Positions 2,293-54,142 of a DNA stretch of 64,000 nt are shown here, one piece after another. Made by a program: the position numbers and the translations under genes. This stretch comes from an uncultured Candidatus Saccharibacteria bacterium (lineage in GTDB: Bacteria; Patescibacteriota; Dojkabacteria; SC72), in contig CAYOEG010000002.1 in the NCBI GenBank assembly GCA_964403155.1, positions 74,296 through 138,295 on the forward strand, in the 5' to 3' direction. Under the pieces are notes generated by a model that saw nothing but the letters and a program-made list of their open reading frames with translations, was not told the origin of the DNA and made no database searches. Position 1 is the first letter of the stretch, and each line of letters begins with the position of its first letter.

Positions 2293-2332
2293 TTTCTAGA
2301 CAAATCAAGTAGCTATGAATATAATCTAGATA

Positions 2333-2974: not shown

Positions 2975-2975
2975 C

Positions 2976-15992: not shown

Positions 15993-17246
15993 ATGCTAAA
16001 CTTGCCTTTTCTGAGACACCTCTCGGATAACAATTCGTTAATAGATACAAATAAGAATGTAATAGCATTAGATATCGGTACAGAGAAGTTAAAAAGCATA
16101 CTTTTCTCTATGGATTCTACGGGTATCAACATTAAAAAGATCTCTCGAATAGACCAGCAACAAAATGCTATGAAGAGTGGAATCATTACCAACCTTGATA
16201 CAGTATTGGAGAACTGTCGACTTTCAATCGCAGAGCTTACCAATCGTCTCCCAGATGAAGAATTGCCACAATATGTAGTCATGGGTATTGCGGGAGAGTA
16301 CATACAGGGTGTCTCCATTGTCATCAACTACCAGAGGGAAGAGAATTTCGATACAGAGGTAACACAAAAAGAGCAGAATAATATCATTAAACAAATTAAA
16401 GAGAAAATCGAGGTAAATGGGAAACAAGATTTAAGTCAAAGAACTGGGCTACACAGTGAGGATATCGAAATCTTGCATATTACCAAGACAGGCTTGGAAA
16501 TAGGGGGAATGCCTGTGGATTCACTAGTTGGATACAAAGGAAGAGATGTAAAATTGAATTTCTACGCTTCCTTCGCACCCAAAACATATGTTGAGGCACT
16601 CAGAAAAGTTGCCCAAGAGCTTCATCTTGGAATCCTAGGGATTGTATCCCAACCATTTGCAGTAGCAAGATCTTTTAACGGATCTTCGAGCAAAGATTTC
16701 TCTGCAATATTCATAGATATCGGAGGTGGAACTTCTGACATCGCTGTGGTAGACAGGGGAAATATTGTTGAGACAAAGATGTTTGCATTTGGAGGAAGAA
16801 CATTCACAAAGGAATTAACAAATGTTCTTTCCCTAGATTACAGACACGCAGAGCAGAGGAAGATAAAATATTCCGAAAAAGATTTGAATAAGGACTTGGC
16901 ACGGGAGGTACAAAAAATTATGTATCCTGTCGCCAAACTTTGGATGAAAACACTGAAAACAGCATTTTACAGCTGTGATGATGTTGATACATTCCCTGGT
17001 CAGATATATCTTTGTGGAGGTGGAGCATTACTTCCTGAAATCAAAGAGGTCATGCTTGAGTTCCCTTGGAAGAAATTCCTTCCTTTCCCTGTAGTACCAA
17101 GAATCGAATACTTTACACCTCAGAAGTTAGACAATATCATAGATCATAGTGGAGACCTAAAATACATTTTTGATGTAACACCTGCTGCACTTGCTAAATT
17201 TGCGTATGATAACGAGATAAATAAATCGAAAAATATAGCAATATAA
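15993..17246 (+). CDS. actin-like ATPase of the FtsA/PilM family
   Basis: Phosphate-1 motif ALDIGTEKLKS and phosphate-2 motif FIDIGGGTSDIAVV. At 417 aa its length is FtsA-like. Confidence 0.5.
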   Translation: MLNLPFLRHLSDNNSLIDTNKNVIALDIGTEKLKSILFSMDSTGINIKKISRIDQQQNAMKSGIITNLDTVLENCRLSIAELTNRLPDEELPQYVVMGIAGEYIQGVSIVINYQREENFDTEVTQKEQNNIIKQIKEKIEVNGKQDLSQRTGLHSEDIEILHITKTGLEIGGMPVDSLVGYKGRDVKLNFYASFAPKTYVEALRKVAQELHLGILGIVSQPFAVARSFNGSSSKDFSAIFIDIGGGTSDIAVVDRGNIVETKMFAFGGRTFTKELTNVLSLDYRHAEQRKIKYSEKDLNKDLAREVQKIMYPVAKLWMKTLKTAFYSCDDVDTFPGQIYLCGGGALLPEIKEVMLEFPWKKFLPFPVVPRIEYFTPQKLDNIIDHSGDLKYIFDVTPAALAKFAYDNEINKSKNIAI

Positions 17247-24302: not shown

Positions 24303-25766
24303 ATGAACAAAGCAGAATTCGACCAATATATAGAGAAGATCCCCAAGCCACAATATACAACTGAAAGTACACCCTCTTACACATTGAACCCTGATGCTCT
24401 TTGGCGATCTACAAAAGAGAATTTGAAGTTAACAATAGGGACAGAAATTTTTAACAATGCTTTTGGAGGAACATATATAGAGAATATTGGAAATGGAGTA
24501 GTACAAATGTCATGTGATTCTGCCTACAAGAGAGAGAAGATATTAAGAGACTATAGCTTTGCATTAAAGGAAGCCCTTAAGAAAGCGTGTGGGCAAAATT
24601 TTGAGATAGAGATAAATATAAGAGAAAATACAATGGTCAAAGATAAATACAAATATGAATATCATGATCCCAGATCTAACCAACCAGTAGATCTCTTTTC
24701 GTCTGCAGAGAATGAGAAAAATCAGAAAGAAGAGACTTTGAGAAAAGCCCAGCTTAATCCTAGATATCTTTTCTCCAATTTCATAGTAGGTACAAACAAT
24801 CGGCTAGCAGAGGCTGTGGCCCAAGCTGTAGTTGATAGCCTTGGAGAAGCATATAATCCTGTGTTCTTTCATGGCAATACAGGAGTAGGAAAAACCCATC
24901 TCATGCAAGCAATAGGGAACGAAGTCATCAACAGATATCCAAACAAGAAGGTTGTATATATCTCCATTGAGCAGTTCCTTAATGAAATGGTGGAATCCAT
25001 AAGAACAAAAAAGAACGAGGAGTTTAGGAATAAATACAGAGCTGTGGACCTACTGATAATAGATGATGTTCAATTCGTTGAAACATTCCCTCGAACACAA
25101 GAAGAGCTCTTTCACACATTTAACACTCTGTATCAAGCAAACAAACAGATTGTTTTGGCGTCTGATAGATCACCAAAAGAGATAAAGAATATTACAGATA
25201 GACTAAGATCTAGATTTGAAGGTGGGATGGTCGCGGATATCCAGGCACCTGATTATGAAACAAGATTGGCAATATTACAGCAGCATCTAATAGAGAAGAA
25301 TTTGAATATTGACGTTCCCCACGAATATCTAGATCTCATTGCTAAAAATGTAGAAAACAACATCCGAGAGCTAGAGGGAGCCTTAACCAAGGTCTTGTCT
25401 CTTTTCAAGTTAGGTATGAACCCTACAGAAGAGGATGTCGCGAAACTTCTGCAGATTGATCTAGATAGTAAACGAAAGAAAATTTCTCCTGTTAAAGTAA
25501 TGAAGGGTGTTTCTGAAGTCTTTGATGTAAAACTTGCGGATATTAAGGGAAGTCGCAGAACGGCATATGTTGCTCAGTGCAGACAAATTGTCATGTATAT
25601 TCTTAGAAATGAGCTTGGCATGCCATTGGAGAGAGTTGCAAAAGAGGTAAATAGAAAAGATCATACTACTGTACTTCATGCTTGCGAAAAAATTAAAAAT
25701 TTGAGAGAAAAAGACTCTAGATTCAACGAAAAAATGCTCGCCTGCTTCAAATTGATAAGAGAGTAG
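24303..25766 (+). CDS. dnaA: chromosomal replication initiator DnaA
   Basis: AAA+ Walker A (GNTGVGKTHL), Walker B (LLIIDDVQF), and a C-terminal DnaA-box-binding HTH (RQIVMYILRNELGMPLERVAKEV...HTTVLHA). Confidence 0.9.
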   Translation: MNKAEFDQYIEKIPKPQYTTESTPSYTLNPDALWRSTKENLKLTIGTEIFNNAFGGTYIENIGNGVVQMSCDSAYKREKILRDYSFALKEALKKACGQNFEIEINIRENTMVKDKYKYEYHDPRSNQPVDLFSSAENEKNQKEETLRKAQLNPRYLFSNFIVGTNNRLAEAVAQAVVDSLGEAYNPVFFHGNTGVGKTHLMQAIGNEVINRYPNKKVVYISIEQFLNEMVESIRTKKNEEFRNKYRAVDLLIIDDVQFVETFPRTQEELFHTFNTLYQANKQIVLASDRSPKEIKNITDRLRSRFEGGMVADIQAPDYETRLAILQQHLIEKNLNIDVPHEYLDLIAKNVENNIRELEGALTKVLSLFKLGMNPTEEDVAKLLQIDLDSKRKKISPVKVMKGVSEVFDVKLADIKGSRRTAYVAQCRQIVMYILRNELGMPLERVAKEVNRKDHTTVLHACEKIKNLREKDSRFNEKMLACFKLIRE

Positions 25767-31693: not shown

Positions 31694-32105
31694 GGGGACG
31701 TAAGGCTTTCGACAGGAGTCTGCGTTTAGTTGTCACAAACCGAGGGTTGTCTCGTTAATCAACGCACAATGATAAGTGTAAAAAACAAAATCGTCGCCTT
31801 TGCAGAGAATATTAAAGCAAGTTTGGCTATGCCAGCTTTCAACTTTAACTTTGCTTAAGGTTTAGTCAATTAAGTTTGACTAATGTCTTCTTTTTCTATT
31901 CCTAGTTAGGAATTTAAGACAGTCGTTACTAGGATATATACTTACTATTTTGTCGGTAGAGTAGTGAGCACGAAAGTAATTACTGAGTGGATATATCTTT
32001 TTGCTAATCCTTTTAGATATGTCTAACTATTTAGGATTAGATATGTTTGTACATGATGCTAGACAATGCTTATGGACGTGGGTTCAATTCCCACCGTCTC
32101 CACCA
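31694..32105 (+). ncRNA. ssrA: tmRNA (ssrA)
   Basis: The 5' end is GGGGACGUAAGGCUUUCGAC, the 3' end is a tRNA-like GGACGUGGGUUCAAUUCCCACCGUCUCCACCA, and the acceptor pairing is GGGGACG/CGUCUCC. The tag reading frame ends ...AMPAFNFNFA-stop (approximately 31796-31858). Confidence 0.85.
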
Positions 32106-33273: not shown

Positions 33274-33954
33274 ATGGCAAACTCTGATTTTCTAAGGGCA
33301 AATCTAAACCAACATGCAGTAAAGAACTCTAAATCTAAAAAAATGGATGAAGAGATTGATGTTGCAGTTCAAAAATTGATCCCTTTCCTCTCTGAAAAAT
33401 ACCCCGAACTTGATTTTGAACATCAAAAAAAGATGCTTTTAAAGGACATTATTTCAATGTTATCCTTACAATTTCCGGGATATTCAAATTTTTTTAGATG
33501 TGAAAAAGAGACGAGCTTCATAAAACCAGATGGAGGTTTCCTTTTTGCGAAGAATAAGAGAGGAGAAAGACGTTTAGTTCTAGTTGCAGAAGTAAAAAGG
33601 CAGGGAACCAATGATAAGAGATTTGAAGAAGGGTTAAGTAGCCAAGCCATGGGGAATGCAATAGAAAGGTTAGGGAAAAATCTCATAGGTATAAGGACGA
33701 TTTTTAAAAATGAAGGAGTTTTGCCTTTTATCTGCTTTGGTTCGGGTCATGATTTTAGAGAAGGATCTTCCATCTTGGACAGAGTTATAACTATGAACGA
33801 ATTCTTCCCATTAAACCAACTCTTCGTAGAGAAGGACTTTATGCCATTTGAACCTGTTTCCATGATGTTTAGATATGAACCTTGGACTGTTGACGAAATG
33901 TTTGAAAGCATGAAAAAGGTTGCAATAAAGGCAATAGAGTATAAGTTTGTTTAA
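33274..33954 (+). CDS. putative type II restriction endonuclease (PD-(D/E)xK)
   Basis: IKPDGGFLF, about 20 residues, then LVLVAEVKRQG forms a PD...ExK signature. It is convergent with, and overlaps by 4 bp, a Dam-like methyltransferase gene. Confidence 0.4.
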   Translation: MANSDFLRANLNQHAVKNSKSKKMDEEIDVAVQKLIPFLSEKYPELDFEHQKKMLLKDIISMLSLQFPGYSNFFRCEKETSFIKPDGGFLFAKNKRGERRLVLVAEVKRQGTNDKRFEEGLSSQAMGNAIERLGKNLIGIRTIFKNEGVLPFICFGSGHDFREGSSILDRVITMNEFFPLNQLFVEKDFMPFEPVSMMFRYEPWTVDEMFESMKKVAIKAIEYKFV

Positions 33955-35099
33955 TTCTTTTTCAATAACCACAAGAGTTCTTTAACCTTGATTGTTCTTT
34001 CTCTTAGGTTTCGAGAACCTCTATACGTGTTGTAATCTTGTTCGTAAAGAATGTAATCCCCATGTTTTTCTAGCATCTTCTTGAAAGTATCTATCGGTAT
34101 AATACCCTCATTGTTGTAAGAGATAAGGATGTATTTTGCTTTTGTGTTTTCTAAAAGGTTGTTCATAAAAACTTCTGCCTCTTGTCTTTTGTTGTATTTT
34201 GACTTGTTCCACTCTTTTGAGATTCCACTTACTCCATCCTGAATATCTGTAGGTTTACCACTATTTATTATATTCAACATGAAATAATTTGAACCATAAG
34301 GATGTTGGTTGTATGGAGGATCGTAATATGCTAAATCAACTTCTGGAAGTTCCAAAATCAGGTTATTAATATCTTCTTGATAGACAGTATAATCACATTC
34401 AACTTCTGAGAAAATCGGCACTTCTAATTCTATCTCACCTTTTATTCGTGTTAATGCATTCTCCCCTTTGCCTCCAAAGTGTCCAATCCCGTCCTTTTTG
34501 TGAAATCCTTTGAAAACACCGGAAGTGTTTGTATGTATAGAAGATTCGACTAGAAGATTTGCCAGACAATATTTTTGTAAATCCTTGTCTAATGTATCTA
34601 TTAAAAATCTAACATTATCAATAATTAAAGCATTTTTATGTGTATAAAAAACGCGCTCTCCTTCCTGAATATTATTGTCATCCTTTGGTGCATAATTTCT
34701 AGTGATAAAATATTCAGATTTAGTTTTTTCAAGTTTCTTTGCATTTAAATATTCTATTGAGTCAGAGAGCTTCTTTATATTAACAGAACTTTTGTTATCC
34801 AAATAAGCAGAGTTAATAGTAAAGGCATAACTTTCTAAGTCATTTACAAGGAGATCCTTTGAGTGATATTTTAGTAACCTTGATACAGAGCCACTTCCAG
34901 CAAAACCATCCAAGGATGTTATTTTATCTTTTCCTAATTCCTTTTTTATTTCTACAATCGCTTGATTAAGAAAAGGAAGTAGCTTTCTCTTATTACCAAT
35001 ATATGTAATTAAGTGTGAAGAAAAGTAGTCCTGGTTAAGAAAGTCACGATCTGTATCATCTTCGAAAAGAAATAGTTTCTGTATATGTTTTCTCTTCAC
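33951..35099 (-). CDS. N6-adenine-specific DNA methyltransferase, D12 (Dam-like) class
   Basis: N-terminal YIGNKRKLLPFL (the Dam 'WAGGK'-type motif), SAM motif LDGFAGSGSV, and catalytic DPPY (AYYDPPYNQHPYGSNYF). Confidence 0.75.
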   Translation of the reverse strand: MKRKHIQKLFLFEDDTDRDFLNQDYFSSHLITYIGNKRKLLPFLNQAIVEIKKELGKDKITSLDGFAGSGSVSRLLKYHSKDLLVNDLESYAFTINSAYLDNKSSVNIKKLSDSIEYLNAKKLEKTKSEYFITRNYAPKDDNNIQEGERVFYTHKNALIIDNVRFLIDTLDKDLQKYCLANLLVESSIHTNTSGVFKGFHKKDGIGHFGGKGENALTRIKGEIELEVPIFSEVECDYTVYQEDINNLILELPEVDLAYYDPPYNQHPYGSNYFMLNIINSGKPTDIQDGVSGISKEWNKSKYNKRQEAEVFMNNLLENTKAKYILISYNNEGIIPIDTFKKMLEKHGDYILYEQDYNTYRGSRNLRERTIKVKELLWLLKKN

Positions 35100-43700: not shown

Positions 43701-43827
43701 AAAGGCACAAGAGAAGATGGTCGAGCTTGTTTCTAAAATCCAATCAAAAGAATTCCCAGCAGATCCAGATCCATTCAAATGTAGTATGTGTGATTACAGA
43801 TCTGTGTGCGAATTCGCCAAAATATAG
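40714..43827 (+). CDS. UvrD/PcrA-family helicase fused to a C-terminal RecB-like PD-(D/E)xK nuclease with a Cys cluster (AddA-like single chain)
   Basis: Helicase motif I (IIAGAGTGKT). Nuclease motif GKVDRIDLVEE...RIVDYKTGK. Terminal CSMCDYRSVCEF. Confidence 0.75.
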   Translation: MTEKVKLNENQKKAVQYVEGDLLIIAGAGTGKTAVITQRILHLIKKCNVKPSEILALTFTEKAAAEMQERIDNEMEYGYEEPWISTFHSFCDGILKEEGYNIGLDGNYSLMTTAQSYIFIRKYLHDLPLKTLKPRGMVTKTLNDILKHFSRLQDEDVSPEDYLAFAKKLPKNTEAEKADFDKYNELAETYNMYSDLKLKESKVDFGDLIILTLKLFRERPNILEKYRKKFKYILVDEFQDTNYTQNVLVNILTLGLDESKKKESKRKNENQRPLLTVVGDDDQAIYKFRGAAISNILQFKETYPDAMEVVLTENYRSRQEILDASHTLIEKNNPNRLEVTEEIDKKLVAKGVFREDENIVNLITAGNETAEAEKIAEEIAKLTGFGEYAKETEKAQVFDETGQSSLVSNTGEMPYKFSDIAILVRANSHSEAIVQALRDMGIEYKLGGSRGLYFRPEIQDIIAYMKILTDYSDEISMYRILAMPIWKLSPREYMDVNRLAREEKISLFQELEKLWNVRLGEGKTDEIAVIENNLIEKVFNAESIASITNLLIILNESILKVKDGRPITEILYDFVKTSGYLDSFVTENTSESLFAVSNIQKFFESIRKYEKDNQNTNIYEYVDYLNYCIEVGESPVVDQLEMEEFNAVNIMTVHGAKGLEYPVVFLTNLVSQRFPSRNMSDSIPMPEELVKEVLDKKMSAEESHMQEERRLFYVGATRAKEKLYLTAASFYGDAKTKKKPSVFLYEILDRDVAEEFSGEKSDINIDSFEEKESVSITGADVRIQVAKNFSYSQLDTYEVCPRKYEYAYILKVPQKPNAALSFGITVHNTLNNFYALHKKAQEGIEGIVQYPMEDEMIELYEKNWTRTGYDSSKHEQLRKTQGENILREYFKNIYSKEERILNLEENFSVHTAEYSFGGKVDRIDLVEEVGGVKQVRIVDYKTGKVKKEAEIKNDLQLPLYAIFVEQKFGYKVVGARYIFLEEGVSIDVDLLEKRREKAQEKMVELVSKIQSKEFPADPDPFKCSMCDYRSVCEFAKI

Positions 43828-43844
43828 TGTGGTATAGTATAATA

Positions 43845-44201
43845 ATGCCTATGAATATTATAGAAATGCTAAATAATTTGTTCCCAGTACAGAAGGCATA
43901 CGCATCGTTGGGATCTTCGTTGAGTGGGGAACTGGAGAAGTTATCTGACTCTAGTGCAGCAGATGAATATGGATTGGTAGAGATTGTAAAAAATATTGCC
44001 ATCCCATTAAGTGTTATCTGTGTTGTACTTTTATTGATTTATGGAGGGTATATGCTTATGTCTAGCAAGGGTGATCCAGATAAGCTTCAGGAAGCAAAGC
44101 AGGTTATAACTAATGCAATTATTGGTTTTGTTGTTATATTATTATGTGTGGCAATATTAATATTAATTTCTAATACATTAGGTTTGGGAATCTATGAATA
44201 A
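43845..44201 (+). CDS. VirB2/TrbC-type (T4SS) pilin-like protein, paralog 1
   Basis: C-terminal two-helix hairpin (IYGGYMLMSSKGDPDKLQEAKQVITNAIIGFVVILL) shared with four downstream paralogs. The start was moved to the ATG at 43845, after the helicase stop. Confidence 0.45.
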   Translation: MPMNIIEMLNNLFPVQKAYASLGSSLSGELEKLSDSSAADEYGLVEIVKNIAIPLSVICVVLLLIYGGYMLMSSKGDPDKLQEAKQVITNAIIGFVVILLCVAILILISNTLGLGIYE

Positions 44202-44493
44202 CTTAGCAATCAACATATCACAATTTTCCTCCATCTTTACAACAAAGTACTATGATGTTGAGACATTTGCAAACAGTAAGCTGGCGGAAATTATAAACTG
44301 GGCTACTGGGTTTGCAGCTTTGGTGGCAGTAATATTTCTCATCATTGCAGGATATACATATATAACAGCAGCTGGTGATGCAGATAAGATTGAAAAAGCA
44401 GGGAAAACTATAACCGCAGCAATAATTGGATTAGTAATTGTTTTTGTAGCGAGGGTATTGGTAGAGTTCGTTTTAAGAAAGCTTATAGGGTAA
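44194..44493 (+). CDS. VirB2/TrbC-type pilin-like protein, paralog 2
   Basis: INWATGFAALVAVIFLIIAGYTYITAAGDADKIEKAGKTITAAIIGLVIVFVA. Confidence 0.5.
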   Translation: MNNLAINISQFSSIFTTKYYDVETFANSKLAEIINWATGFAALVAVIFLIIAGYTYITAAGDADKIEKAGKTITAAIIGLVIVFVARVLVEFVLRKLIG

Positions 44494-44556
44494 TCTTGAA
44501 ACATTTCTATCATTTGTATATAATAAACACATAAATTAATATATTTTTAGATTTTT

Positions 44557-44913
44557 ATGAAAACACCAAAAATCTTAGCAGGCGCAACATCTATTTTCTC
44601 AGGATTATATTTAGCTTCTGCAGCTTTCGCAGGCGCAACATCCGATGCAGAGGGTCTTATACAAAATATCGGCGGTACTGGAAAAGCAGACCTTATGACT
44701 TTGATCTATAGCTTAATAAACTGGGCTATCGGCATTGCGGCTTTGGTTTGTGTAGTAGTCTTAATCTTCAGTGGTTATAAGTATATTACTGCTGCAGGAG
44801 ATGAGGCTAAGGTAGAGAGTGCTACAAAAACATTAACCTTTGCAATTATTGGTTTAGTTGTTTGTTTCATTGCAGTCATCTTAGTAAAATTTGTTCTCCA
44901 GAAGCTCGTTTAA
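44557..44913 (+). CDS. VirB2/TrbC-type pilin-like protein, paralog 3 (with signal peptide)
   Basis: Signal peptide MKTPKILAGATSIFSGLYLASAAFAGA, then INWAIGIAALVCVVVLIFSGYKYITAAGDEAKVESATKTLTFAIIGLVV. Confidence 0.5.
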   Translation: MKTPKILAGATSIFSGLYLASAAFAGATSDAEGLIQNIGGTGKADLMTLIYSLINWAIGIAALVCVVVLIFSGYKYITAAGDEAKVESATKTLTFAIIGLVVCFIAVILVKFVLQKLV

Positions 44914-44940
44914 TAGCTCAAAGAGAGAAACGCTTAAGTT

Positions 44941-45210
44941 ATGGGAATAGATTTGAGCCCTTTGGTGGGTACTAGCTATGAAAATTTGCAGGAGTTTTTG
45001 TATTTTTTAATTAACTATGCAATAACGATTTCTGCAGTGGTTGCAGTCGTTTCATTAATAATATCAGGGTTTAAATACATTCTATCTTTTGGTGATGATA
45101 AGAAGGTAAAGGCCGCAACTAGCTCAATCATATACTCTCTAGTAGGTTTGGTACTTGTGTTTGCAGCCCCTATAGTTATAAAATTTGTTATTAATACTTT
45201 ACTAAAATAA
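44941..45210 (+). CDS. VirB2/TrbC-type pilin-like protein, paralog 4
   Basis: INYAITISAVVAVVSLIISGFKYILSFGDDKKVKAATSSIIYSLVGLVLVFAAPIV. Confidence 0.5.
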   Translation: MGIDLSPLVGTSYENLQEFLYFLINYAITISAVVAVVSLIISGFKYILSFGDDKKVKAATSSIIYSLVGLVLVFAAPIVIKFVINTLLK

Positions 45211-45212
45211 TA

Positions 45213-45572
45213 ATGAACAAATTACTTGGTTTGATAACGTATTTTTCATCTCTTTTCTTTGCAACACCAGTCTTGGCAACGAATACAGACCCAGGTGGTA
45301 TGGGTAATACAGTTGTTGGTGCAGGGGATGAACCACTAAAGATAGAAGTAATAGCTGGTGTCGTTGATAAAGTTATGAATATCGTATTCCCAGTAGCCGG
45401 AGTCCTGTGTGTAATATTTATCATTATTGGAGGATATATGTGGATTGCTTCTGCAGGTGATCCTGCTAAGGTAAAACAGGCACAAGGGACATTGACTTGG
45501 GCAATCATAGGTTTAGTCTTTGTATTAGTAGTGAGGCTAATAGTTAGTGCAGTGATAGGTGCTTTAGAGTAA
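45213..45572 (+). CDS. VirB2/TrbC-type pilin-like protein, paralog 5 (with signal peptide)
   Basis: Signal peptide MNKLLGLITYFSSLFFATPVLA, then FPVAGVLCVIFIIIGGYMWIASAGDPAKVKQAQGTLTWAIIGLVFVLVV. Confidence 0.5.
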   Translation: MNKLLGLITYFSSLFFATPVLATNTDPGGMGNTVVGAGDEPLKIEVIAGVVDKVMNIVFPVAGVLCVIFIIIGGYMWIASAGDPAKVKQAQGTLTWAIIGLVFVLVVRLIVSAVIGALE

Positions 45573-45607
45573 TCCAAAAATATCATTCATATAGTGTATA
45601 ATTAGCT

Positions 45608-47449
45608 ATGGTTAAAAAGCCCCTAAATTTCTTACAACTTTGTTTAACTGTCATCCTTTGTGGATATGGGTTTATGCTTTTTACAAATCCTGTATATTCT
45701 GATGAGGCAACAGATCTTGAGAATCAGATAAATCAAAAGAATCAAGAATTAAATGAGAAACAAACAACCCTTTCCCAAGTAGAAGCTAGAATTAAGGAGA
45801 TTAGTGGAAGTAACTATTCAGTAAGTCAAAAGATTGCATTGATAAATGAAGAGATAGCAAAACTAGATGCTAGTATTGCTGCAAATTCGGAGGCTTTGAA
45901 TTCGAAGATCAAGGAGATTGAGGGCAGACAAGCCCTTATTGCTCAGAAGAAAGTAGAGATGGATCAGCTTTCTACAGATCTATATATGCAATCTAGATAT
46001 AGGATGGCAACATTCTTCCTCTCAGGTAAGGATTGGGATATTTTAGTTAAGGAATTTTTCTTAAAACAGAGTAGTATTTCTGTTTTAAAAACAGAGGTTG
46101 AACAGATTAATGGAGAATTTAGTAGTTTAGAAGAGAGTAGGGCGTTGTTAGAGGCAGAAAAAACAAATCTTGAGGCTCAGAAGAAGGATATGGATGATTC
46201 TTATGCTTTGTTAGCTGCTGAGAAGGCAAAGTTGCAGAGTGAATTAAATAGTCAGTATGCAAGTAAGAGTTCGTTGACTAAGACCATAGGGAGTCTTTCT
46301 AAAGAAATTTCTCAATTACAACAATATCTTTTGACAGTGAAATCTGGCGGTACTGTTGTGAATGCGAATTCTGTTCCCCAAAGTTCTTCTGATCCTCAAT
46401 CGTCTCAACTATATTTTCGAAACAATGCTCCATCTGGTGCCTTCGCAGTTTTCTCGTATGGTGCATATACATGGAGACATGGTATGAGTCAGTGGGGGGC
46501 AAGGGCAAGGGCTGATGCGGGACAGTCATATCAGACCATCCTCTCTGCTTATTATCCTGGTACAACGATGGTGAGTGATACAATGAGCACGATAACTGTG
46601 AGATCTTGCAATAGAAACGGCGCACGTTGTAGTGTTTGCAATAGTCCTACATATGCAACATACAGTTTTGAAGACTATTACATGAAGAAAATTGCTGAAA
46701 TGCCAGATGATTTTGGACCAGAGGCTTTGAAAGCACAAGCAATCGCTACAAGAACCTATGCACTTAAAGCAACAAACTATGGGGCAGAAGCAATAGATGA
46801 TGACGAATGTGATCAGGTATTTAATGCAGGTGTGAATAAACCCAATTGGGAGGCCGCAGTTGCAGCCACCAGTGGTATTGTCCTTGCAACTGGGGGAACA
46901 TTAGCAGATACCCCATATGCAGCTGTTCATGGTGGGTATTCATATGATATGGGTTGGGATACCAAATCGGGCAATGGAGGATATTTAGATTGGGAAAAAG
47001 ACGCTTGGGAGAGTGCATCCCAAGTCAGTTGGTTCTACAAAAACTGGTTTAGAAAGGGGTATTCTTTAAGCGGAAATAACTGCGGACGTAATCCATGGCT
47101 AACAAATATTGAAATGGCGGATATATTAAATGCATATTTAAGATGGACGCAAGTTAGTAGCGACTCTAGAATTGTTGCGGTAGACACAACTAGTTGTTGG
47201 GGACAAGCTGCTAACCCATACAGTATTGCTCAACTTCAAGCTGTTGTCTCGAATCCGGTAACATATGTGTATAGCTCAGTCGTAACGAACTCGAATGGTA
47301 CCACGACGAATGTGTCATTTAACACAAACAGGGGAGTTATAAATATACCAGGTCAAGATTTCAAGACAGTTTTCAATATGAGGGCTCCAGGTGCAGTAAG
47401 AATTCCTCAAAATGGAACAATCATGAACATCAACATAGAGTACAAATAA
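45608..47449 (+). CDS. membrane-anchored coiled-coil protein with a SpoIID/LytB-like peptidoglycan hydrolase domain
   Basis: N-terminal TM helix, about 230 aa of coiled coil, then SpoIID-type motifs (MSQWGARARADAGQSYQTILSAYYPGTT and PEALKAQAIATRTYALKA). Confidence 0.6.
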   Translation: MVKKPLNFLQLCLTVILCGYGFMLFTNPVYSDEATDLENQINQKNQELNEKQTTLSQVEARIKEISGSNYSVSQKIALINEEIAKLDASIAANSEALNSKIKEIEGRQALIAQKKVEMDQLSTDLYMQSRYRMATFFLSGKDWDILVKEFFLKQSSISVLKTEVEQINGEFSSLEESRALLEAEKTNLEAQKKDMDDSYALLAAEKAKLQSELNSQYASKSSLTKTIGSLSKEISQLQQYLLTVKSGGTVVNANSVPQSSSDPQSSQLYFRNNAPSGAFAVFSYGAYTWRHGMSQWGARARADAGQSYQTILSAYYPGTTMVSDTMSTITVRSCNRNGARCSVCNSPTYATYSFEDYYMKKIAEMPDDFGPEALKAQAIATRTYALKATNYGAEAIDDDECDQVFNAGVNKPNWEAAVAATSGIVLATGGTLADTPYAAVHGGYSYDMGWDTKSGNGGYLDWEKDAWESASQVSWFYKNWFRKGYSLSGNNCGRNPWLTNIEMADILNAYLRWTQVSSDSRIVAVDTTSCWGQAANPYSIAQLQAVVSNPVTYVYSSVVTNSNGTTTNVSFNTNRGVINIPGQDFKTVFNMRAPGAVRIPQNGTIMNINIEYK

Positions 47450-47492: not shown

Positions 47493-48116
47493 ATGAAAGA
47501 CATAATAAGTCAGAACAATAACATCCCTAAGAAATTCAGAAACCTGAAGAGATCTTTCGTAGAAACAATCGCTTTGCACAATGACCACTCCTTTAAATCA
47601 TTTCCCAAAGGATTAAAATTCCATGGAAAAGAACAGGGAGAAGAAATTGTATTGGTCATAAGATCACATTGGATAATATATCTACCACAGATATTGGCAA
47701 CACTATTAGTATTGGCCTTACCATGGATCCTTGTTGGGATATTTAGCTCTATCCTACACAATTTCACAATATTCCTGGCCTTACTAATAACCTCGTTCTT
47801 AATTGCTGCTAGTATTGTAGTCTCATCAATCCTAAAATGGTATTACAATGTCAGTATAATAACTGATCAGAGAGTCATAGATTTGGATTTCCCTAATATA
47901 ATGGCACATTCTATGTCTGAAGCTCAGCTTGAAAAAATTGAAGATGTAACACACAAACAGCTTGGGATATTAGGAAGTTTCTTTGATGTAGGATCGGTAT
48001 ATATCCAAACCGCAGGAACAGCTCAAAATATCGAATTTACAAATGTCCCAAGACCAAGAGATATTCAAGATATTTTAATAGATATGTTGGAATCTAAGCA
48101 GAAAGGAGAAATATGA
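47493..48116 (+). CDS. membrane protein with a C-terminal bacterial PH-like (YdbS/YdbT-type) domain (tentative)
   Basis: Two TM helices, then a beta-rich segment with a YdbT-like pattern (VIDLDFPNI...SVYIQTAGTAQNIEF). Confidence 0.3.
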   Translation: MKDIISQNNNIPKKFRNLKRSFVETIALHNDHSFKSFPKGLKFHGKEQGEEIVLVIRSHWIIYLPQILATLLVLALPWILVGIFSSILHNFTIFLALLITSFLIAASIVVSSILKWYYNVSIITDQRVIDLDFPNIMAHSMSEAQLEKIEDVTHKQLGILGSFFDVGSVYIQTAGTAQNIEFTNVPRPRDIQDILIDMLESKQKGEI

Positions 48117-48385
48117 TGGATAATCCAAATGATATATTGGACAATTTAGGTAAAAATCCATTATCAGGGTTAGGAATAAATGCAATCGGTCTTCTCAAAG
48201 CACCAATAATCATAATCCTCATAGGTAATCTTCTCTTCTCAGCACTACTCTTCTTAAGATCTAGAATCCTAGCAGACACATTTGAATCTTCCAGTAACAA
48301 AGTTATAAAAATAATAGTATCTAGTTATCTTGTTCTAACAGTTATAGGAAGCATAGTCACGGTACTATTTCTTTTAATTGGATAA
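48113..48385 (+). CDS. small two-TM membrane protein
   Basis: 90-aa ORF whose start overlaps the upstream stop. Confidence 0.3.
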   Translation: MMDNPNDILDNLGKNPLSGLGINAIGLLKAPIIIILIGNLLFSALLFLRSRILADTFESSSNKVIKIIVSSYLVLTVIGSIVTVLFLLIG

Positions 48386-48387
48386 TT

Positions 48388-50583
48388 ATGAAAATTACTG
48401 CTCAACAGTTTGTTTCAAATAGCAAAGAAGGGAACTCCTTTGTATCAATCTTCAAACATTTTGCGAACTCTGGTGAAAAGAAGACAGAGAGAGAAGGGGA
48501 CCTGTACTGCCTTCTTAATATCTCTGGGAAAGAAAATATCCCTGCAGAAAGAATAAGTAAGTTCGTTTGGGATGGGATTTTAGATGGGTATATATATTCC
48601 AACGAAAAAAGCACAAACAACGCACTCAAAGATGGGATTAATAACGGAGTTCAGAAACTTAGAGATCTCATAAAGAATGATCAAACATTGGAAGAACTGG
48701 GGGTTAATGTTGATTTTGTACTTGTAGCTCAGAGGAAAGAGGGATTGTATATTGGGAATCTCGGAGAAAATGAAATATATGCCTACAAGGCTGGAAAGTT
48801 TGTAGATATATCAGAAATATTGAAGAAAAGTAGGGCAAATACCGCAGGTATCGCACTTGAAGAACAGGATATGCTAGTAATCTCTACAAAAGGTGTCTTA
48901 GAAGGATATATCAACTCACTATCCAACTCGAAAGATTCCAAAAATGTTGTATTAGGGCTTAAGACTTTAGGTGGAGGATTGAATGGGTCTGGTGGTTTTG
49001 TGCTTTTCTTAGATGAAGAATTGAATGAGACTACAGAGTTAGAAGAAATACCAATAGATGGAGAAGAACCTCTTCTGCATCAACATCCAAAAGAATCGGA
49101 GAAATATGCAGTAATGGCAGAGCATACAATCAAATACACGAAGGGCAGATTTTTCCAAGGATACGGTCTGATCAAGGATGGTGCAGTTGAATATTTCCAA
49201 AGGATAAAGGAATGGGTAAAGAATATTCTTGGGAATCGTAAATGGTTTAAAAAGTTTGCATCCAAGGTTTCTGAAATCAAGATAAATACAAAACCGATAA
49301 CTTCGATGAAAGGTATGCGCATAGATGGTTACAAGACAAAAGATCTTCGTACGAGGAGGGTTCGAATGGTGGTAATAGGTGTTGCAATAATAGTACTCTT
49401 AGCTTTGGGAATAAATTTCACAATCAAAGCAAGGAATGCAAGCATCGTACATAAGCAGGCAACTGCGGTATTTACAGAAGTTGAAAACCTTGTTAAGAAG
49501 GCAGAGAATTATGCAACCTCGGACAAAAGTACTGCAGAAATGTCCATATATCAGGCAAAAAACCAACTCAATGGCCTTCCTGCAACCCTCTCTGAGAAGG
49601 ATATGGGTATCAAGGTGGGATACGATTCTAGAATATTGTCTTTAGAGGATTCGATGTACTATCGTGTTGGGCTAACAGACAACGATGGAAAACTGTCGAC
49701 ATTCTTGGATTCCAGACTTGCCTTTGGAGAAGGGTCTAATCCTACAGACATAGAGATATACTCTGATTCCTCTGGGAATAGATATCTGATTGTAACAGAC
49801 AAGGGACTCAAGTCTGTATATAGAGTCGCTTTGTATGACAAGGTGACAGAGAAGCTAATAGATACCAGTAACCTTTTGAAGGAACCAATGTATGTTTCAA
49901 TGGGCAATTCCGGGGTGTTTGTTTACGACGAAAGAGTAGGAGTACTTAAAGCACCCTTTGATGATAGTAAATGGTTCTCGACATTTGTGGCAATTTCTGG
50001 ATTAAGTAGAGAAAGCATCAAGCCAGACCAAATCAGTGAGTTCATTGTATTAACGGAATCGGACAATATATATATATTGGCACAGGATGAGAATTCCCTG
50101 CTTAAATCTGTTTTCTCATATGAAAATAGATATGGCCTTTATTACAGATACATTACAGATGACAGATTCACAAATTCTACAGATGTATTAGCAGACCTTA
50201 GTGTATATTTCTTAACATCAGACGCTCCATACCTATTAAGATACAGTTACAACTATGCAGAACAGATTCAGAAAGAAAATCCTTTGACAATATCTGGCGT
50301 AAACGGAGATCTTGGAATATTAACAAAGGGTTTTACAACTGAGAGTCTTGATGAAGGGTTGTATGTATTTGATTCTGCAAACAAAAGATTTGTGAAGTTT
50401 GAAAAACCTCAGGAAGCAGGTAGCAATATAATTCACCCGAATGAAGTAGTATTAAAAGCACAGTGGGTATACAGGGGATCTAAGAGTGGAGTGTGGGATA
50501 ATATCAAAGACTTCGTAGTAGATTCTTCTACTGGAGATCTATATATTCTCGATGGCTCTACAGTTTGGAAGGTCGTGATATAA
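48388..50583 (+). CDS. bitopic membrane protein with an N-terminal degenerate PP2C-like (pseudophosphatase) domain and a large extracytoplasmic C-terminal domain
   Basis: The PP2C motif order is retained but metal-binding Asp residues are replaced: DGxGG becomes LNISGK, GDSR becomes NLGENEIYAYKAGKF, SDG becomes STKG. One TM helix (VRMVVIGVAIIVLLALGINF). Confidence 0.4.
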   Translation: MKITAQQFVSNSKEGNSFVSIFKHFANSGEKKTEREGDLYCLLNISGKENIPAERISKFVWDGILDGYIYSNEKSTNNALKDGINNGVQKLRDLIKNDQTLEELGVNVDFVLVAQRKEGLYIGNLGENEIYAYKAGKFVDISEILKKSRANTAGIALEEQDMLVISTKGVLEGYINSLSNSKDSKNVVLGLKTLGGGLNGSGGFVLFLDEELNETTELEEIPIDGEEPLLHQHPKESEKYAVMAEHTIKYTKGRFFQGYGLIKDGAVEYFQRIKEWVKNILGNRKWFKKFASKVSEIKINTKPITSMKGMRIDGYKTKDLRTRRVRMVVIGVAIIVLLALGINFTIKARNASIVHKQATAVFTEVENLVKKAENYATSDKSTAEMSIYQAKNQLNGLPATLSEKDMGIKVGYDSRILSLEDSMYYRVGLTDNDGKLSTFLDSRLAFGEGSNPTDIEIYSDSSGNRYLIVTDKGLKSVYRVALYDKVTEKLIDTSNLLKEPMYVSMGNSGVFVYDERVGVLKAPFDDSKWFSTFVAISGLSRESIKPDQISEFIVLTESDNIYILAQDENSLLKSVFSYENRYGLYYRYITDDRFTNSTDVLADLSVYFLTSDAPYLLRYSYNYAEQIQKENPLTISGVNGDLGILTKGFTTESLDEGLYVFDSANKRFVKFEKPQEAGSNIIHPNEVVLKAQWVYRGSKSGVWDNIKDFVVDSSTGDLYILDGSTVWKVVI

Positions 50584-50593
50584 TAGCGATATT

Positions 50594-51037
50594 ATGAAGA
50601 TTTTCAATAAAAAGGCATCTTTCAATTATGAGATACTTGAGACATTTGAAGCAGGTATTGTCTTAACAGGGGCTGAGGTTAAATCCGTAAAGACGGGAAG
50701 ACTAAATCTTGGAGATGCATATGTAAAAATAATAAATAATGAGTTATGGCTCGTTAATGCAGATATTCCTAGATATAAATATTCTTCGGATGAGCACTAT
50801 GATTCAACTAGATCAAGGAAGCTTTTAATAAATAGGGATCAGTTTGTTAAATTGCAAAGTAAGATAAAACAAGGTAATCTGACATTAATGCCTGTGAGTA
50901 TGTATGATACGAGAGGTTTTTTGAAGGTAGAAGTAGGTATTGGTAGAGGAAAGAAACACTATGAGAAGAAGCTAAGAGAGAAGGAGAGGGATTTGGATAG
51001 GGAACTCCACTTGGAGAACAGAAAATATGTGATATAA
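50594..51037 (+). CDS. smpB: SsrA-binding protein SmpB
   Basis: NKKASFNYEILETFEAGIVLTGAEVKS...GDAYVKI...ELWLVNADIPRY...RSRKLLINRDQ.... Confidence 0.9.
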   Translation: MKIFNKKASFNYEILETFEAGIVLTGAEVKSVKTGRLNLGDAYVKIINNELWLVNADIPRYKYSSDEHYDSTRSRKLLINRDQFVKLQSKIKQGNLTLMPVSMYDTRGFLKVEVGIGRGKKHYEKKLREKERDLDRELHLENRKYVI

Positions 51038-51049
51038 TGTTATAGGATT

Positions 51050-51385
51050 ATGACAGACTTAAATATTGGTTTAGAAAAAGGAAAGAATTCTGAGACAAAA
51101 CCACTTTCTCCAGAGGGCTTAGATTCTGCTAAAGGTGCTGATTTAGAGAACAACACTCTCGCTCAAGAACCTGCTGCAAAGCCAGAAGATGAACAGGACC
51201 TTCCAAAAGTGCAGTCTCCAGTACAGGCACAGAAAGATAATAAAGTTGCAGAGGAAACTCTGCCAGGAGTTGGATATCAATTGCCTGCAGAAAATGTGCT
51301 TATAGAATCTGATGAAACAATAGCAAGACTTTTGATATTGCGTGACAAAATGAGAAATGGTGGAATCCCTTCCAACCAACAGTAA
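51050..51385 (+). CDS. hypothetical acidic low-complexity protein
   Basis: 111-aa ORF. No motif recognised. Confidence 0.3.
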   Translation: MTDLNIGLEKGKNSETKPLSPEGLDSAKGADLENNTLAQEPAAKPEDEQDLPKVQSPVQAQKDNKVAEETLPGVGYQLPAENVLIESDETIARLLILRDKMRNGGIPSNQQ

Positions 51386-51410: not shown

Positions 51411-53975
51411 GTGATATTCTTTAAGCATAAGATTACCTTACTGCCATTAATGAATTCAGATGAATTCACATATTCACAAGTAATAGGTCCAATTAAAGAT
51501 CCTACCAAAGAAATTGAAACTGGTTCTAATGTTGTGTATCCAAATAATTCATACGAGGAATATTATGGAAACAACAATATAGAGATCCCGTGGGGTTGGA
51601 TTATTTTCGCACTTGTATTAATAGGTGGCCTTGTAGTAGCTTTTTTCCTTGTTAAGAAAAAATTAATTAGGAAAGACAGAAATGAAAAAGCCAATGATGG
51701 AGTATTAATGGAGGTACGGGTTCCAAGAGATAACGAAGTGGAAATAGGAGTCGCAGAACAGATGTTCGCAAATCTCTACGGTATTGGTGGAAAAGGAGAT
51801 GGCTTAGCAGAACACTTTACAGTAGGTAACGCAGTAAGTTTTGAAGTTGTTGGATTACCTGGTGAAATTAGGTTCTTTGTGCATTGCCCAAGGAAATTCG
51901 CTGACTTAGTTGAGAAACAAATCTTAGGATCATACCAAGATGCTGATGTCTCGATAGTGAATGAGTACAATATATTTGCTCCCAATACTAAATCAGCATA
52001 CACAAGGTTAGTCTTAGACGAGGAACCATATTGTCCATTAAGAGTAGCAGAGAATTTTACAGGAGATCCATTTGCAAATGTACTTAGCACACTTAGCAAG
52101 ATGTCTGAAAATGAAGGTGCTGTTGTACAGATAATTGTTACTCCTACAGATAGTACTTGGCAGAAAAATGGGGCGAAGTTTGTACAGAAGGTAGAAAACA
52201 ACAACTCAGATCCCGAAAAGAAAAAGATAGGGATCTCACAGGAGAAGTTGCAAGGAATAGGGAAGAAGGTTGCAAAGCCAGGGTTGGCCACCGAGATTCG
52301 TATTATGACAAGTGCTCCTGACGAGGCGATTGCAAAGATGCATTTAGATAATATTGTTGGTGCATTCGACCAATACAATAACCCAGGGGTGAACAAATTA
52401 AAGAAGGCAAAGGTAGAGAAGAAAGACGAGAAGAGATTCCTTTATGATGTCATATATAGGAGGACGCCAGAAGCAAAGGAATCTATTCTTAATGTCGAAG
52501 AGCTTGCGGCCTTATATCATTTCCCTAATAAAAATATTACAACACCCAATATTCATTGGTTGCTATCAAGAGAGTTAGTGGCAGATAATTCAATTAGTTC
52601 TGACATAAAGTCTAAGGATACGATATGGATCGGGAACAATTATTTTAGAGGAAAGAAGAAGATTATATGTTTTGAACGGGATGATAGAAGAAGGCATTCG
52701 TATATTCTTGGTCAGACGGGTACGGGTAAGTCTTGGCTTATGAAGAGGATGATATTGCAAGATATATACAATGGCGATGGGGTTTGTTTCATAGATCCAC
52801 ATGGAGAAACAGCAGAAGATATTTTAGAGTTGATCCCACCAGAGAGGGCAGAGGATGTTATCTACTTTAATGCAGGAGATTTTGAACGTCCTTTTGGTTT
52901 GAATATTATGGAATTTTACAATGAGCAGCATCAGCACCAAATTGTTAATAGCTTCATTGCTTTGTTGATTAGGTTGTTTGACCCTCACAATCAAGGATAT
53001 GTAGGTCCGGCAATGCAACAAGCGGTAAGAAACTCTATGCTTACAGCTATGGCAAAAGAAGGGTCGACTCTAATTGAGGTTGTTAGAATATTGCAGGATG
53101 AGGAATGGGTTATGAATTATTGGTTACCAATGGTAAAGGATGAACTGGTAAGAAGGTACTGGACTGATCAGGTGGCGAAGACAGACAAAAAGACTAAGTC
53201 TGAATCTTTGACATATTTCATTAGTAAGTTTGATAAATTCACAACAAATCTGGCAATTAGAAATATTATTGGTCAGTCTAAATCATCTTTTGATTTCAGA
53301 GATGTGATGGACAACCAGAAAATCCTGATAATCAACCTTTCGAAGGGTGCGATAGGGGATGAGAATATGTCCTTCATCGGTCTTCTTGTTGTACAGAAAA
53401 TGTTGGCTGCGGCACTAAGTAGAGAGAATATTCCTCAAGAACAAAGAAAAGACTTTTTCTTCTATGCTGATGAGTTCCAGAATTTTGCAACAGAGGAATT
53501 CTCTTCTATTTTGTCCGAGGCAAGAAAGTACAAATTAAATCTCACAATTGCACATCAATATATTGGTCAACTACCGGAAGAAATTAAGAATGCAGTGTTT
53601 GGTAACGTTGGTTCTTTATTCATAACAAGGTGTAGTGCAGAGGATGCAAAGTTTTTGGAGACTCAGTTTGAGCCATATGTTAAGGCGGGAGATATGGTTA
53701 ACCAAGGTTCTGGACATTGGTATGTTAAATTACTGAACAATGGTGTATATCCTGCGCCTTTCTCGCTTAATTCTTTCTATGGACCGAAATTCCCTGATTC
53801 TGGTTTTGATCTTCCTGTTAGAAAGGATGTGGCAGATATTATTAAGAAATACTCAAGAGCTAAGTATGGTAGGGATGTGGCAGTAATTAATGAGGATATT
53901 AAGATAAGGTCACAGTTGGACAGAAAACCTGAACCTAATCCTATGAATTCTCCATTCCCGCAAATGGGATTCTAA
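51411..53975 (+). CDS. membrane-anchored FtsK/HerA-superfamily P-loop ATPase of type IV secretion type (VirD4/TraD-like coupling protein, or VirB4-like)
   Basis: N-terminal TM helix. Walker A is YILGQTGTGKSWLM, Walker B is DFFFYADEFQNFA, and there is a downstream TIAHQYIGQL motif. Confidence 0.55.
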   Translation: MIFFKHKITLLPLMNSDEFTYSQVIGPIKDPTKEIETGSNVVYPNNSYEEYYGNNNIEIPWGWIIFALVLIGGLVVAFFLVKKKLIRKDRNEKANDGVLMEVRVPRDNEVEIGVAEQMFANLYGIGGKGDGLAEHFTVGNAVSFEVVGLPGEIRFFVHCPRKFADLVEKQILGSYQDADVSIVNEYNIFAPNTKSAYTRLVLDEEPYCPLRVAENFTGDPFANVLSTLSKMSENEGAVVQIIVTPTDSTWQKNGAKFVQKVENNNSDPEKKKIGISQEKLQGIGKKVAKPGLATEIRIMTSAPDEAIAKMHLDNIVGAFDQYNNPGVNKLKKAKVEKKDEKRFLYDVIYRRTPEAKESILNVEELAALYHFPNKNITTPNIHWLLSRELVADNSISSDIKSKDTIWIGNNYFRGKKKIICFERDDRRRHSYILGQTGTGKSWLMKRMILQDIYNGDGVCFIDPHGETAEDILELIPPERAEDVIYFNAGDFERPFGLNIMEFYNEQHQHQIVNSFIALLIRLFDPHNQGYVGPAMQQAVRNSMLTAMAKEGSTLIEVVRILQDEEWVMNYWLPMVKDELVRRYWTDQVAKTDKKTKSESLTYFISKFDKFTTNLAIRNIIGQSKSSFDFRDVMDNQKILIINLSKGAIGDENMSFIGLLVVQKMLAAALSRENIPQEQRKDFFFYADEFQNFATEEFSSILSEARKYKLNLTIAHQYIGQLPEEIKNAVFGNVGSLFITRCSAEDAKFLETQFEPYVKAGDMVNQGSGHWYVKLLNNGVYPAPFSLNSFYGPKFPDSGFDLPVRKDVADIIKKYSRAKYGRDVAVINEDIKIRSQLDRKPEPNPMNSPFPQMGF

Positions 53976-54027
53976 TAGATGTATCTTCTAAAAACCTTCA
54001 TCTTTTGGTAGAATAGGCTACTTTAAT

Positions 54028-54100
54028 GGGAGTATAGCTCAGTCGGCAGAGCGCGGTTCTTATAAAGCCGTGGTCGATGGTTCGATTCCATCTACTCCCA
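54028..54100 (+). tRNA. tRNA-Ile (anticodon UAU), no encoded CCA
   Basis: Hand-folded. The acceptor stem is GGGAGTA/TACTCCC, the D-arm is GCTC...GAGC, the anticodon stem is CGGTT/AGCCG, the loop is CTTATAA, and the T-loop is TTCGATT. Confidence 0.7.
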
Positions 54101-54142
54101 TATTTCATCAATATTTAATAACTGCAGAGTACAATCTTCGTT

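Follow-up and report, generated by a model that had tools for sequence, protein, structure and literature searches.

Organization of the pilin array

The window analysed here is a 64 kb stretch of contig CAYOEG010000002.1, from an uncultured member of the Dojkabacteria, within the ultra-small Patescibacteria. It contains five tandem genes, p1 to p5, all on the forward strand and all encoding small two-helix proteins that match PF18895, a pilin family of type IV secretion systems (T4SSs). The first, p1 (43851–44201; 116 amino acids, 35.5 bits against PF18895), consists of an acidic N-terminal tail followed by the two-helix core. The second, p2 (44194–44493; 99 amino acids, 47.6 bits), has no signal peptide, and p3 (44557–44913; 118 amino acids, 53.6 bits) begins with a classical one ending in AFA↓G. 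A 22-residue acidic N-terminal tail precedes the core of p4 (44941–45210; 89 amino acids, 47.5 bits), and p5 (45213–45572; 119 amino acids, 47.5 bits) again starts with a classical signal peptide (VLA↓T). The genes of p1 and p2 share an overlap of 8 nucleotides (nt), and the remaining gaps measure 63 nt (p2–p3), 27 nt (p3–p4) and 2 nt (p4–p5).

Two other starts are available for p1, at 43845 and at a GTG codon at 43806. The GTG start would give the protein a longer, signal-peptide-like N-terminus, but this extension is broken by in-frame stops in five of seven orthologous loci. ATG 43851 is the most likely start, because of these stops just upstream and because a conserved TATAAT ends at 43843. 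It should be noted that long open reading frames (ORFs) also run antisense to the pilin genes in the window (44250–44513 and 45191–45586, both on the reverse strand). At L011 (L-numbers designate the loci of relatives that we compared with the window) the public gene call is an antisense ORF (9619–9945, reverse strand) in place of p2, and the p2 ORF on the forward strand is intact. Miscalls of this kind may cause pilin arrays to be undercounted by automated annotation.

Homology and family assignment

The first-pass annotation of this locus had described five tandem pilin paralogs made by local gene duplication, with a conserved hairpin core and unrelated N-termini. It had added that the similarity would be compositional if the shared segment were only a generic transmembrane hairpin without conserved GD, K and IIG positions. 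The MAFFT alignment of the five proteins contains 12 invariant columns, including the glycine of G(Y/F), the G-D-x-x-K loop, an alanine four residues past the lysine and the G-x-V of helix 2; the polar loop and the helix-2 motif thus set the segment apart from a generic hairpin. Every pair of pilins is found by BLASTP with composition-based statistics, at 29–63% identity and with expectation values (E) of 1e-3 to 1e-23, set to a nominal database of 1e6 residues. The core is also seen at the DNA level, as a 72 nt repeat of 61–71% identity in four of the five genes. Because of the invariant columns and the significant composition-corrected E-values, we take the shared core to reflect homology and not hydrophobic composition, and the description of five tandem paralogs with a conserved core holds. 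That of unrelated N-termini was overstated: the BLASTP alignments reach into the N-terminal regions (residues 7–102 of p1 with 12–107 of p3, and 7–117 of p3 with 4–118 of p5), p1 carries a signal-peptide-like motif, and p2 keeps vestiges that align with p3, both described below.

All five pilins exceed the gathering cut-off of PF18895 (T4SS_pilin; 26.6 bits), by 9–27 bits, and matches to this family are on record for their orthologs too. The TrbC/VirB2 model PF04956 gives sub-threshold matches to p1, p2, p4 and p5 (14.7–23.8 bits against a cut-off of 27.9; E of 5e-5 to 0.036) and none to p3 in the same scan; some orthologs of p4 and p5 in other genomes have PF04956 matches on record. The family NF045849 (Mbov_0395 family, pilin-like proteins of mycoplasma integrative and conjugative elements, ICEs) aligns over nearly all of its 80 positions with each of the five. 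It is an equivalog model with a cut-off of 40 bits, which p3 passes (42.9 bits) and p1, p2, p4 and p5 do not reach (33.1–38.5 bits). Homologs of p3 occur in Candidatus Dojkabacteria (candidate division WS6) and in other Patescibacteria, and some of these homologs are named by NCBI as ‘pilin’, ‘TrbC/VirB2 family protein’ or ‘Mbov_0395 family pilin-like conjugal transfer protein’.

In all five pilins the hydropathy profiles show a pair of hydrophobic helices with a short polar loop between them. The AlphaFold2 (AF2) model of p3, built from 53 aligned sequences, predicts a signal-peptide helix followed by a hairpin (residues 43–78 and 83–117), with a predicted local distance difference test (pLDDT) score of 80–90 in the core and 73 overall; the fold evidence is consistent with the pilin family but uninformative. 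Type IV pilins were considered and rejected, since the proteins have two hydrophobic helices, not one, and no G↓FxxxE motif; no type IV pilin or N-methylation family is found among the matches of the five pilins at E up to 1. On sequence grounds we assign the five genes to VirB2-like T4SS pilins and not to type IV pilins. The proposed origin of pilin paralogs by tandem duplication can be retained at the family level, with the pilins being of the VirB2/TrbC-like kind and the duplication being ancient, as discussed in the next section.

Could these nevertheless be generic two-helix membrane proteins outside secretion, for example holin-like partners of a hydrolase, with a Pfam match that is compositional? 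The hairpin fold is low in information and has no significant structural match, and a peptidoglycan enzyme is encoded directly downstream, all of which would suit such a role. Yet the margins of all five over a curated PF18895 cut-off, the invariant polar loop motif and the significance of the BLAST matches under composition correction argue otherwise, and the locus belongs to the core chromosome, close to dnaA, rather than to a prophage. Moreover, a PHROGs scan for holin and phage families found none, its sole match being to one family of unknown function (E of 0.0025). We regard this explanation as very improbable.

Conservation across the Dojkabacteria

Seven loci fetched via homologs of p3 have the same gene order, with five pilins and a helicase-nuclease that is 59–90% identical to its counterpart upstream of the array in the window. 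The best matches between genomes are position-specific for the pilins. When the 66-residue cores from eight genomes are placed in a neighbour-joining tree, p1, p3, p4 and p5 are each monophyletic, with p2 split in two. The first-pass annotation had also suggested looking for the same array elsewhere, and it is indeed widespread: a scan with one genome per species yielded 79 loci, nearly all of which share this synteny, and among the 60 with a complete array 48 contain five pilins and nine contain six (four, seven and eight pilins occur once each). The extra copies are mostly p3-like. Since four positions are monophyletic and five is the modal array size, the duplications are ancient, predating the radiation of the class, and the five-member set has been kept since.

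The mean identity between orthologs is 66% for p3, 58% for both p1 and p4, 54% for p5 and 48% for p2, compared with 68% for the helicase and 81% for an ATPase encoded downstream; p3 is the most conserved position and p2 the fastest-evolving. Depending on the genome, the cores of p2 and p3 are 36–62% identical (62% in the lineage of the window, the highest value, and 36–41% in L005, L007 and L012), which suggests some gene conversion between these neighbours or uneven or lineage-specific rates. The antiquity and position specificity of the duplications favour a fixed set of distinct, co-maintained subunits over switchable antigenic variants.

N-terminal regions

Signal peptides were judged by inspection, hydropathy and a heuristic. 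The classical signal peptides that had been noted for the genes starting at 44557 and 45213 are confirmed by inspection and hydropathy: p3 carries MKTPKILAGATSIFSGLYLASAAFA↓G and p5 carries MNKLLGLITYFSSLFFATPVLA↓T, both with basic n-regions. The other three proteins had been described as lacking any hydrophobic N-terminal segment. This is correct for p2 and p4, which have no signal peptide in any genome examined, but not for p1, the N-terminus of which is weakly hydrophobic and signal-peptide-like (…FPVQKAYA↓SLG), with a conserved motif (A/V)(Y/F)A↓(S/Q). The tail of p2, of about 33 residues, has no hydrophobic core and retains vestiges (SIF...FA) alignable with the p3 signal peptide. None of 50 p4-type orthologs is signal-peptide-like; the p5 orthologs mostly are, and the N-terminal region of p5 is the most variable of the five.

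The p3 ortholog of L012 is intact, with the conserved ATG, and has no signal peptide, and because of this case insertion without a signal peptide appears to be tolerated. The N-terminal tails are net acidic, which, from general membrane-protein biology, is compatible with translocation of the tail independently of a signal peptide.

Substitution rates and divergence between close relatives

We calculated Nei–Gojobori rates for cores and N-termini separately, as had been proposed in the first-pass annotation, in two pairs: the window with L003, and L005 with L007. Nonsynonymous divergence (dN) is higher in the N-terminal regions (0.11–0.58) than in the cores (0.03–0.23) over both pairs. Between the window and L003 the N-terminal value is two to nine times that of the core, and for p5 the two values are 0.58 and 0.06. 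As the synonymous divergence (dS) of this pair is saturated (0.8 to undefined), dN is reported and its ratio dN/dS (ω) is approximate. Wherever ω can be estimated it is below 1, with a maximum of 0.50 at the N-terminus of p5. Constraint on the cores is strong. The N-termini are still under purifying selection, though relaxed or diversifying, with no average signal of positive selection.

The comparison of L005 with L007 is of a different kind. Their flanking sequences (the helicase, the N-terminal part of the SpoIID/LytB protein encoded directly downstream of the array, and the downstream membrane genes) are 90–99% identical at the nucleotide level, compared with 68–78% for the pilin array, with sharp boundaries at the edges of the array. 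The dS values are 1.0–1.4 for the pilins and 0.12–0.35 for the flanks, a five- to tenfold difference. These sharp boundaries and the excess of synonymous divergence point to replacement of the array by recombination rather than to faster point mutation. Four further species-level pairs with a helicase nucleotide identity of at least 88%, a small sample, gave array and helicase identities of 73 and 95% (L020/L021), 71 and 91% (L058/L065), 89 and 94% (L044/L077) and 99 and 95% (L071/L072). In two of these four pairs the divergence of the array greatly exceeds that of its flanks, and the array is thus a recurrent, but not universal, hotspot of divergence.

A second variable segment lies in the SpoIID/LytB protein, which from about residue 213 onwards, SpoIID domain included, is hypervariable between near-identical genomes. 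Its C-terminal two-thirds are only 37–59% identical at the nucleotide level between L005 (12058–13370) and L007 (12043–13333). L007 and L008 are 98% identical, pilins included, and here the C-terminal region of SpoIID is unalignable between flanks of 97–99% identity. As the pilins of this pair are alike, the two variable segments change independently.

Divergence of this kind might be taken as a sign of alternative pilins, deployed singly or as strain-specific sets, for antigenic variation or for matching to host strains. The excess divergence of the array in L020/L021 and L058/L065 and the synonymous divergence of L005/L007, with the recombinational replacement that it suggests, fit such a scheme, and host-strain adaptation has been proposed for Patescibacteria arrays (PMC12102498). 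But the same five positions are orthologous across the class, every copy is intact and has its start codon, the promoter-like sites are conserved, ω remains below 1 throughout and the L071/L072 pair shows no divergence of the array. A search of the array for switching repeats, silent cassettes and invertible elements found none, nor any high-identity or meaningful inverted repeats. Cassette-type antigenic variation was rejected, as the array consists of five complete ORFs with conserved orthologs and its longest DNA similarity between copies is the 72 nt repeat described above. Furthermore, a strain-level swap of the whole set would also be compatible with a fixed set of non-redundant subunits. 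We therefore consider alternative pilins to be improbable. The first-pass annotation had left the choice between major and minor pilins and antigenic variants; the idea of diversified subunits survives in its major/minor form, and intact copies without switching repeats tell against the antigenic one.

Promoter-like sites

A consensus scan placed a promoter-like site, P1, at 43814–43843 on the forward strand (TCGCCA-18-TATAAT), with its −10 box ending 7 nt ahead of ATG 43851. The AGTATAAT element at this site is kept in six of eight orthologous loci, and in the other two TATAAT lies a few bases upstream. The short distance between the −10 box and the ATG suggests a p1–p2 transcript that is leaderless or nearly so. 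A second site, P3, lies in the p2–p3 spacer (44496–44524, forward strand; TTGAAA-17-TATAAT) and agrees with the consensus at 11 of 12 positions; the TTG of its −35 box and the ATATAAT of its −10 box are invariant in all eight loci. In this AT-rich region the scan returns five sites compared with 9.4 in shuffled sequences, that is, fewer than expected by chance, so that only conservation counts as evidence for a promoter. By this measure two promoter-like sites may serve the array, one of them being dedicated to p3.

Genomic context

The window is chromosomal: it contains dnaA (24303–25766), rpoD, aminoacyl-tRNA synthetases, RNase J, FtsH, PolA, the transfer-messenger RNA (tmRNA) and tRNA genes. 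The array is about 18 kb from dnaA, in agreement with a published observation that T4SS genes in Patescibacteria tend to be located close to the origin (PMC12102498). The order of genes is the UvrD/PD-(D/E)XK helicase-nuclease, the five pilins, a SpoIID/LytB coiled-coil protein, a bPH_2-like protein, a DUF5657 protein, a 731-residue membrane protein, SmpB, a 111-residue protein, the ATPase, tRNA-Ile, a NYN-domain protein and a Xer-like recombinase. The locus that runs from the helicase through the pilins, SpoIID, the membrane proteins and SmpB to the ATPase is conserved across the class.

The SpoIID/LytB coiled-coil protein (45608–47449, forward strand; PF08486, E of 9.8e-14; TIGR02669, 99.6 bits against a cut-off of 83.3) is predicted to be secreted or anchored, and its gene comes directly after the pilins in nearly all of those 79 loci that extend far enough to show it. 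It is a possible partner of the pilins and, given the role that this family suggests, could be an analogue of VirB1 in peptidoglycan remodelling. Three syntenic membrane proteins follow on the same strand. The first (47493–48116) matches bPH_2 weakly (PF03703, 20.8 bits, below the cut-off of 22), the second (48113–48385) is a two-helix protein for the orthologs of which DUF5657 (PF18901) is recorded, and the third (48388–50583) is the single-pass protein of 731 residues, which keeps its position and matched no Pfam or NCBIfam family.

Two genes separate this membrane protein from the ATPase. The first, smpB (50594–51037), is syntenic here, and the tmRNA gene (31694–32105) lies in the same window. 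The second (51050–51385), just upstream of the ATPase, encodes an acidic low-complexity protein of 111 residues that keeps its position in every locus at an identity of only 18–39%. This protein was considered as a VirB3 equivalent and rejected, as it has no transmembrane helix.

The ATPase (51450–53975, forward strand; 841 amino acids) lies 5.9 kb downstream of the array and comprises an N-terminal transmembrane helix, DUF8128 and a Walker-A domain of the VirD4/VirB4 superfamily. Its Pfam matches are DUF87, T4SS-DNA_transf and TrwB_AAD_bind, and its PDB matches are DotL and TrwB. With tblastn it is 27–33% identical to plasmid coupling proteins annotated as ‘type IV secretion system DNA-binding / TraM recognition’ (E down to 6e-58, covering 77–89% of the ATPase-domain query), and the NCBI names of its relatives are likewise coupling-protein-like. 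The full-length AF2 model, built with database homologs, has a pLDDT of 65; its best match is R388 TrwK/VirB4 (E of 3e-13 over about 900 columns, with a TM-score of only 0.22–0.25), followed by HerA and then by TrwB (E of 1e-6). From the sequence matches and the model we conclude that this is a putative ATPase of the T4SS superfamily which combines a VirB4-like two-domain layout with a VirD4-like catalytic domain. Two Dojkabacteria genomes are marked as VirB4-positive in PMC12102498 (Table S1); our own analysis located no canonical VirB4 in the Dojkabacteria.

Several other features of the region should be mentioned. The tRNA-Ile gene downstream of the ATPase (54027–54101, ARAGORN) has the anticodon TAT (UAU), instead of the usual route to AUA codons through CAU plus lysidine. 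A convergent restriction-modification pair consists of an EcoRI-family endonuclease (33274–33954, forward strand) and a D12-class N6-adenine methyltransferase (33951–35099, reverse strand). An FtsA/PilM-like actin-fold protein (15993–17246) is followed by a 618-residue protein without a Pfam match (17246–19102), and the two may belong to a module for type IV pili or for division. Finally, a few kilobases upstream of its helicase–pilin locus L007 contains an insertion (1671–4173) that encodes a Phage_rep_O protein as well as a large serine recombinase; the window has no insertion of this type.

Interpretation

We propose that the five proteins are probably VirB2/TrbC-superfamily pilins of a chromosomal T4SS-like apparatus, serving as non-redundant subunits that were fixed early in the class, although we hold this with some reserve. 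Each pilin would form a helical hairpin in the membrane, with both termini outside and the G-D-x-x-K loop in the cytoplasm. p3, p5 and possibly p1 would arrive at this topology by way of a cleavable Sec signal peptide; in p2 and p4 the short acidic N-terminal tail would be translocated and helix 1 would serve as a reverse signal anchor. A T4SS ATPase would pull the subunits out of the membrane, and they would polymerize into a pilus-like filament or a conduit through the own wall of the cell towards a host bacterium, with the downstream SpoIID-type enzyme aiding the crossing of the wall. p3 would be the major subunit and the other pilins minor or adaptor subunits, and the variable N-terminal segments would be the surface-exposed, host-facing parts. 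We infer all of these elements, from topology, extraction and polymerization to the subunit roles and the host-facing function, and the expectation of a pilus comes from family membership.

A number of points weigh against this proposal. No gene in the 64 kb window matched the family models of VirB3, VirB4, VirB6 or VirB8, and the ATPase resembles a coupling protein by sequence, and VirB4 only in a fold match of low confidence. A Foldseek search of the PDB with the p3 model returned nothing significant (the best pilin, that of the archaeal Aeropyrum pernix conjugation pilus, 8dfu, came fourth with an E of 1.8), because a two-helix hairpin is too simple, and a sequence profile of 53 pilins found no solved relative among the PDB sequences. 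The inter-helix loops are net neutral, so that the positive-inside rule leaves the topology undecided. The case for major and minor roles consists of conservation and the promoter only, and a pilus has not been shown for any Patescibacteria T4SS (PMC12857230).

An alternative is a translocation channel that stays embedded in the membrane and is never extended into a pilus, as in the pilus-independent transfer of VirB2 systems or with the ICE pilin-like proteins of the wall-less mycoplasmas. The NCBIfam match of the array is to precisely this mycoplasma family, NF045849; T4SSs of the Gram-positive type, from which that of the Patescibacteria derives, generally have no pili (PMC12102498, PMC10633639), and the N-terminal tail of p4, with its mere 22 residues, has little to expose. 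Five distinct conserved subunits with fast-evolving N-terminal ectodomains, however, are better suited to a surface-exposed polymer, and a pilus is held to be plausible in reviews (PMC12857230). We judge a channel of this type to be rather unlikely and retain the set of non-redundant pilins as the preferred explanation.

Comparison with known systems

Pilin arrays are already known in the Patescibacteria (PMC12102498, PMC10633639), and the present locus is a well-conserved example rather than a new kind of system. A search of 3035 Patescibacteria genomes with PF18895, PF04956 and other profiles identified 441 VirB2 arrays of 2–11 genes in 383 assemblies, with a mean within-array identity of 25% (PMC12102498). 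Described arrays include SEML1_0006–0019 of Southlakia epibionticum ML1 and the ‘Sec secreted array’ of TM7x (PMC10633639, PMC12102498, PMC12857230); in S. epibionticum the predicted pilin series within the T4SS cluster is essential (PMC10633639). The locus studied here shares with them the PF18895 family, the tandem arrangement of 2–11 divergent two-helix pilins of similar structure, a chromosomal and origin-proximal position, a monoderm host of the candidate phyla radiation and the absence of a relaxase in the vicinity. It differs in its occurrence in the Dojkabacteria, the arrays being reported as most abundant in the Microgenomatia and Saccharimonadia, in a within-array identity of up to 63%, compared with a reported maximum of 54%, and in having as neighbours a SpoIID-type enzyme and an ATPase that resembles coupling proteins and has DUF8128 as its N-domain, with no recognisable VirB3, VirB6 or VirB8 adjacent.

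With the VirB2/TrbC pilins of PF04956 (the Agrobacterium T-pilin, RP4 TrbC and F TraA) the five proteins have in common their small size, a signal peptide, two helices and a short charged loop. Unlike these pilins, they score below the PF04956 cut-off, two of them have no signal peptide, and five co-maintained paralogs of a monoderm host stand in place of a single major pilin; they are known from their genes alone, with no sign of cyclization or C-terminal processing. The resemblance to the Mbov_0395 and MMCAP2_0565 proteins of mycoplasma ICEs extends over nearly the whole NF045849 model for all five pilins, but four of them remain below its 40 bits and their locus belongs to the core chromosome and not to an ICE.

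A parallel in arrangement may be drawn with the virB2 paralogs of Anaplasma, Ehrlichia and Bartonella, which are also divergent tandem copies and for which surface variation in host interaction has been proposed; PMC12102498 draws this parallel with Bartonella and Anaplasma and suggests host-strain adaptation. Those organisms are diderms that live inside animal cells as pathogens and possess canonical VirB/D4 machines, whereas the copies in the Dojkabacteria are ancient position-specific orthologs with no sign of differential or variable expression. Several features of the locus are not described in the available portions of PMC12102498, PMC10633639 and PMC12857230, namely the class-wide position-specific orthology, the two positions without a signal peptide, the putative promoter dedicated to p3, the adjacency of SpoIID in place of VirB3, VirB6 and VirB8, and the cassette-like replacement between close relatives.

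Significance

The role of the Patescibacteria T4SS has been called “completely unknown” (PMC11665869), although the system is essential in the one species tested (PMC10633639). If it bears a pilus, it would be the first such T4SS in a monoderm (PMC12857230). The locus provides a class-wide example in which the number and order of the paralogs are fixed, one pilin has a putative promoter of its own and two have no signal peptide, and in which near-identical genomes sometimes have sharply different pilin sets. Such features leave the kind of system unchanged and lead to testable predictions on the roles of the subunits and on host specificity. One may go further and speculate, as a tentative and on balance doubtful extension of this proposal, that the filament or conduit is an obligate hetero-oligomer of fixed composition, with p2 and p4 as its signal-peptide-free members, and that the pilin set is exchanged by recombination among close relatives in the Dojkabacteria as a host-range cassette, the catalytic and C-terminal half of SpoIID being exchanged likewise but independently. 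If this were true, the locus would be the determinant of specificity in the epibiotic interaction.

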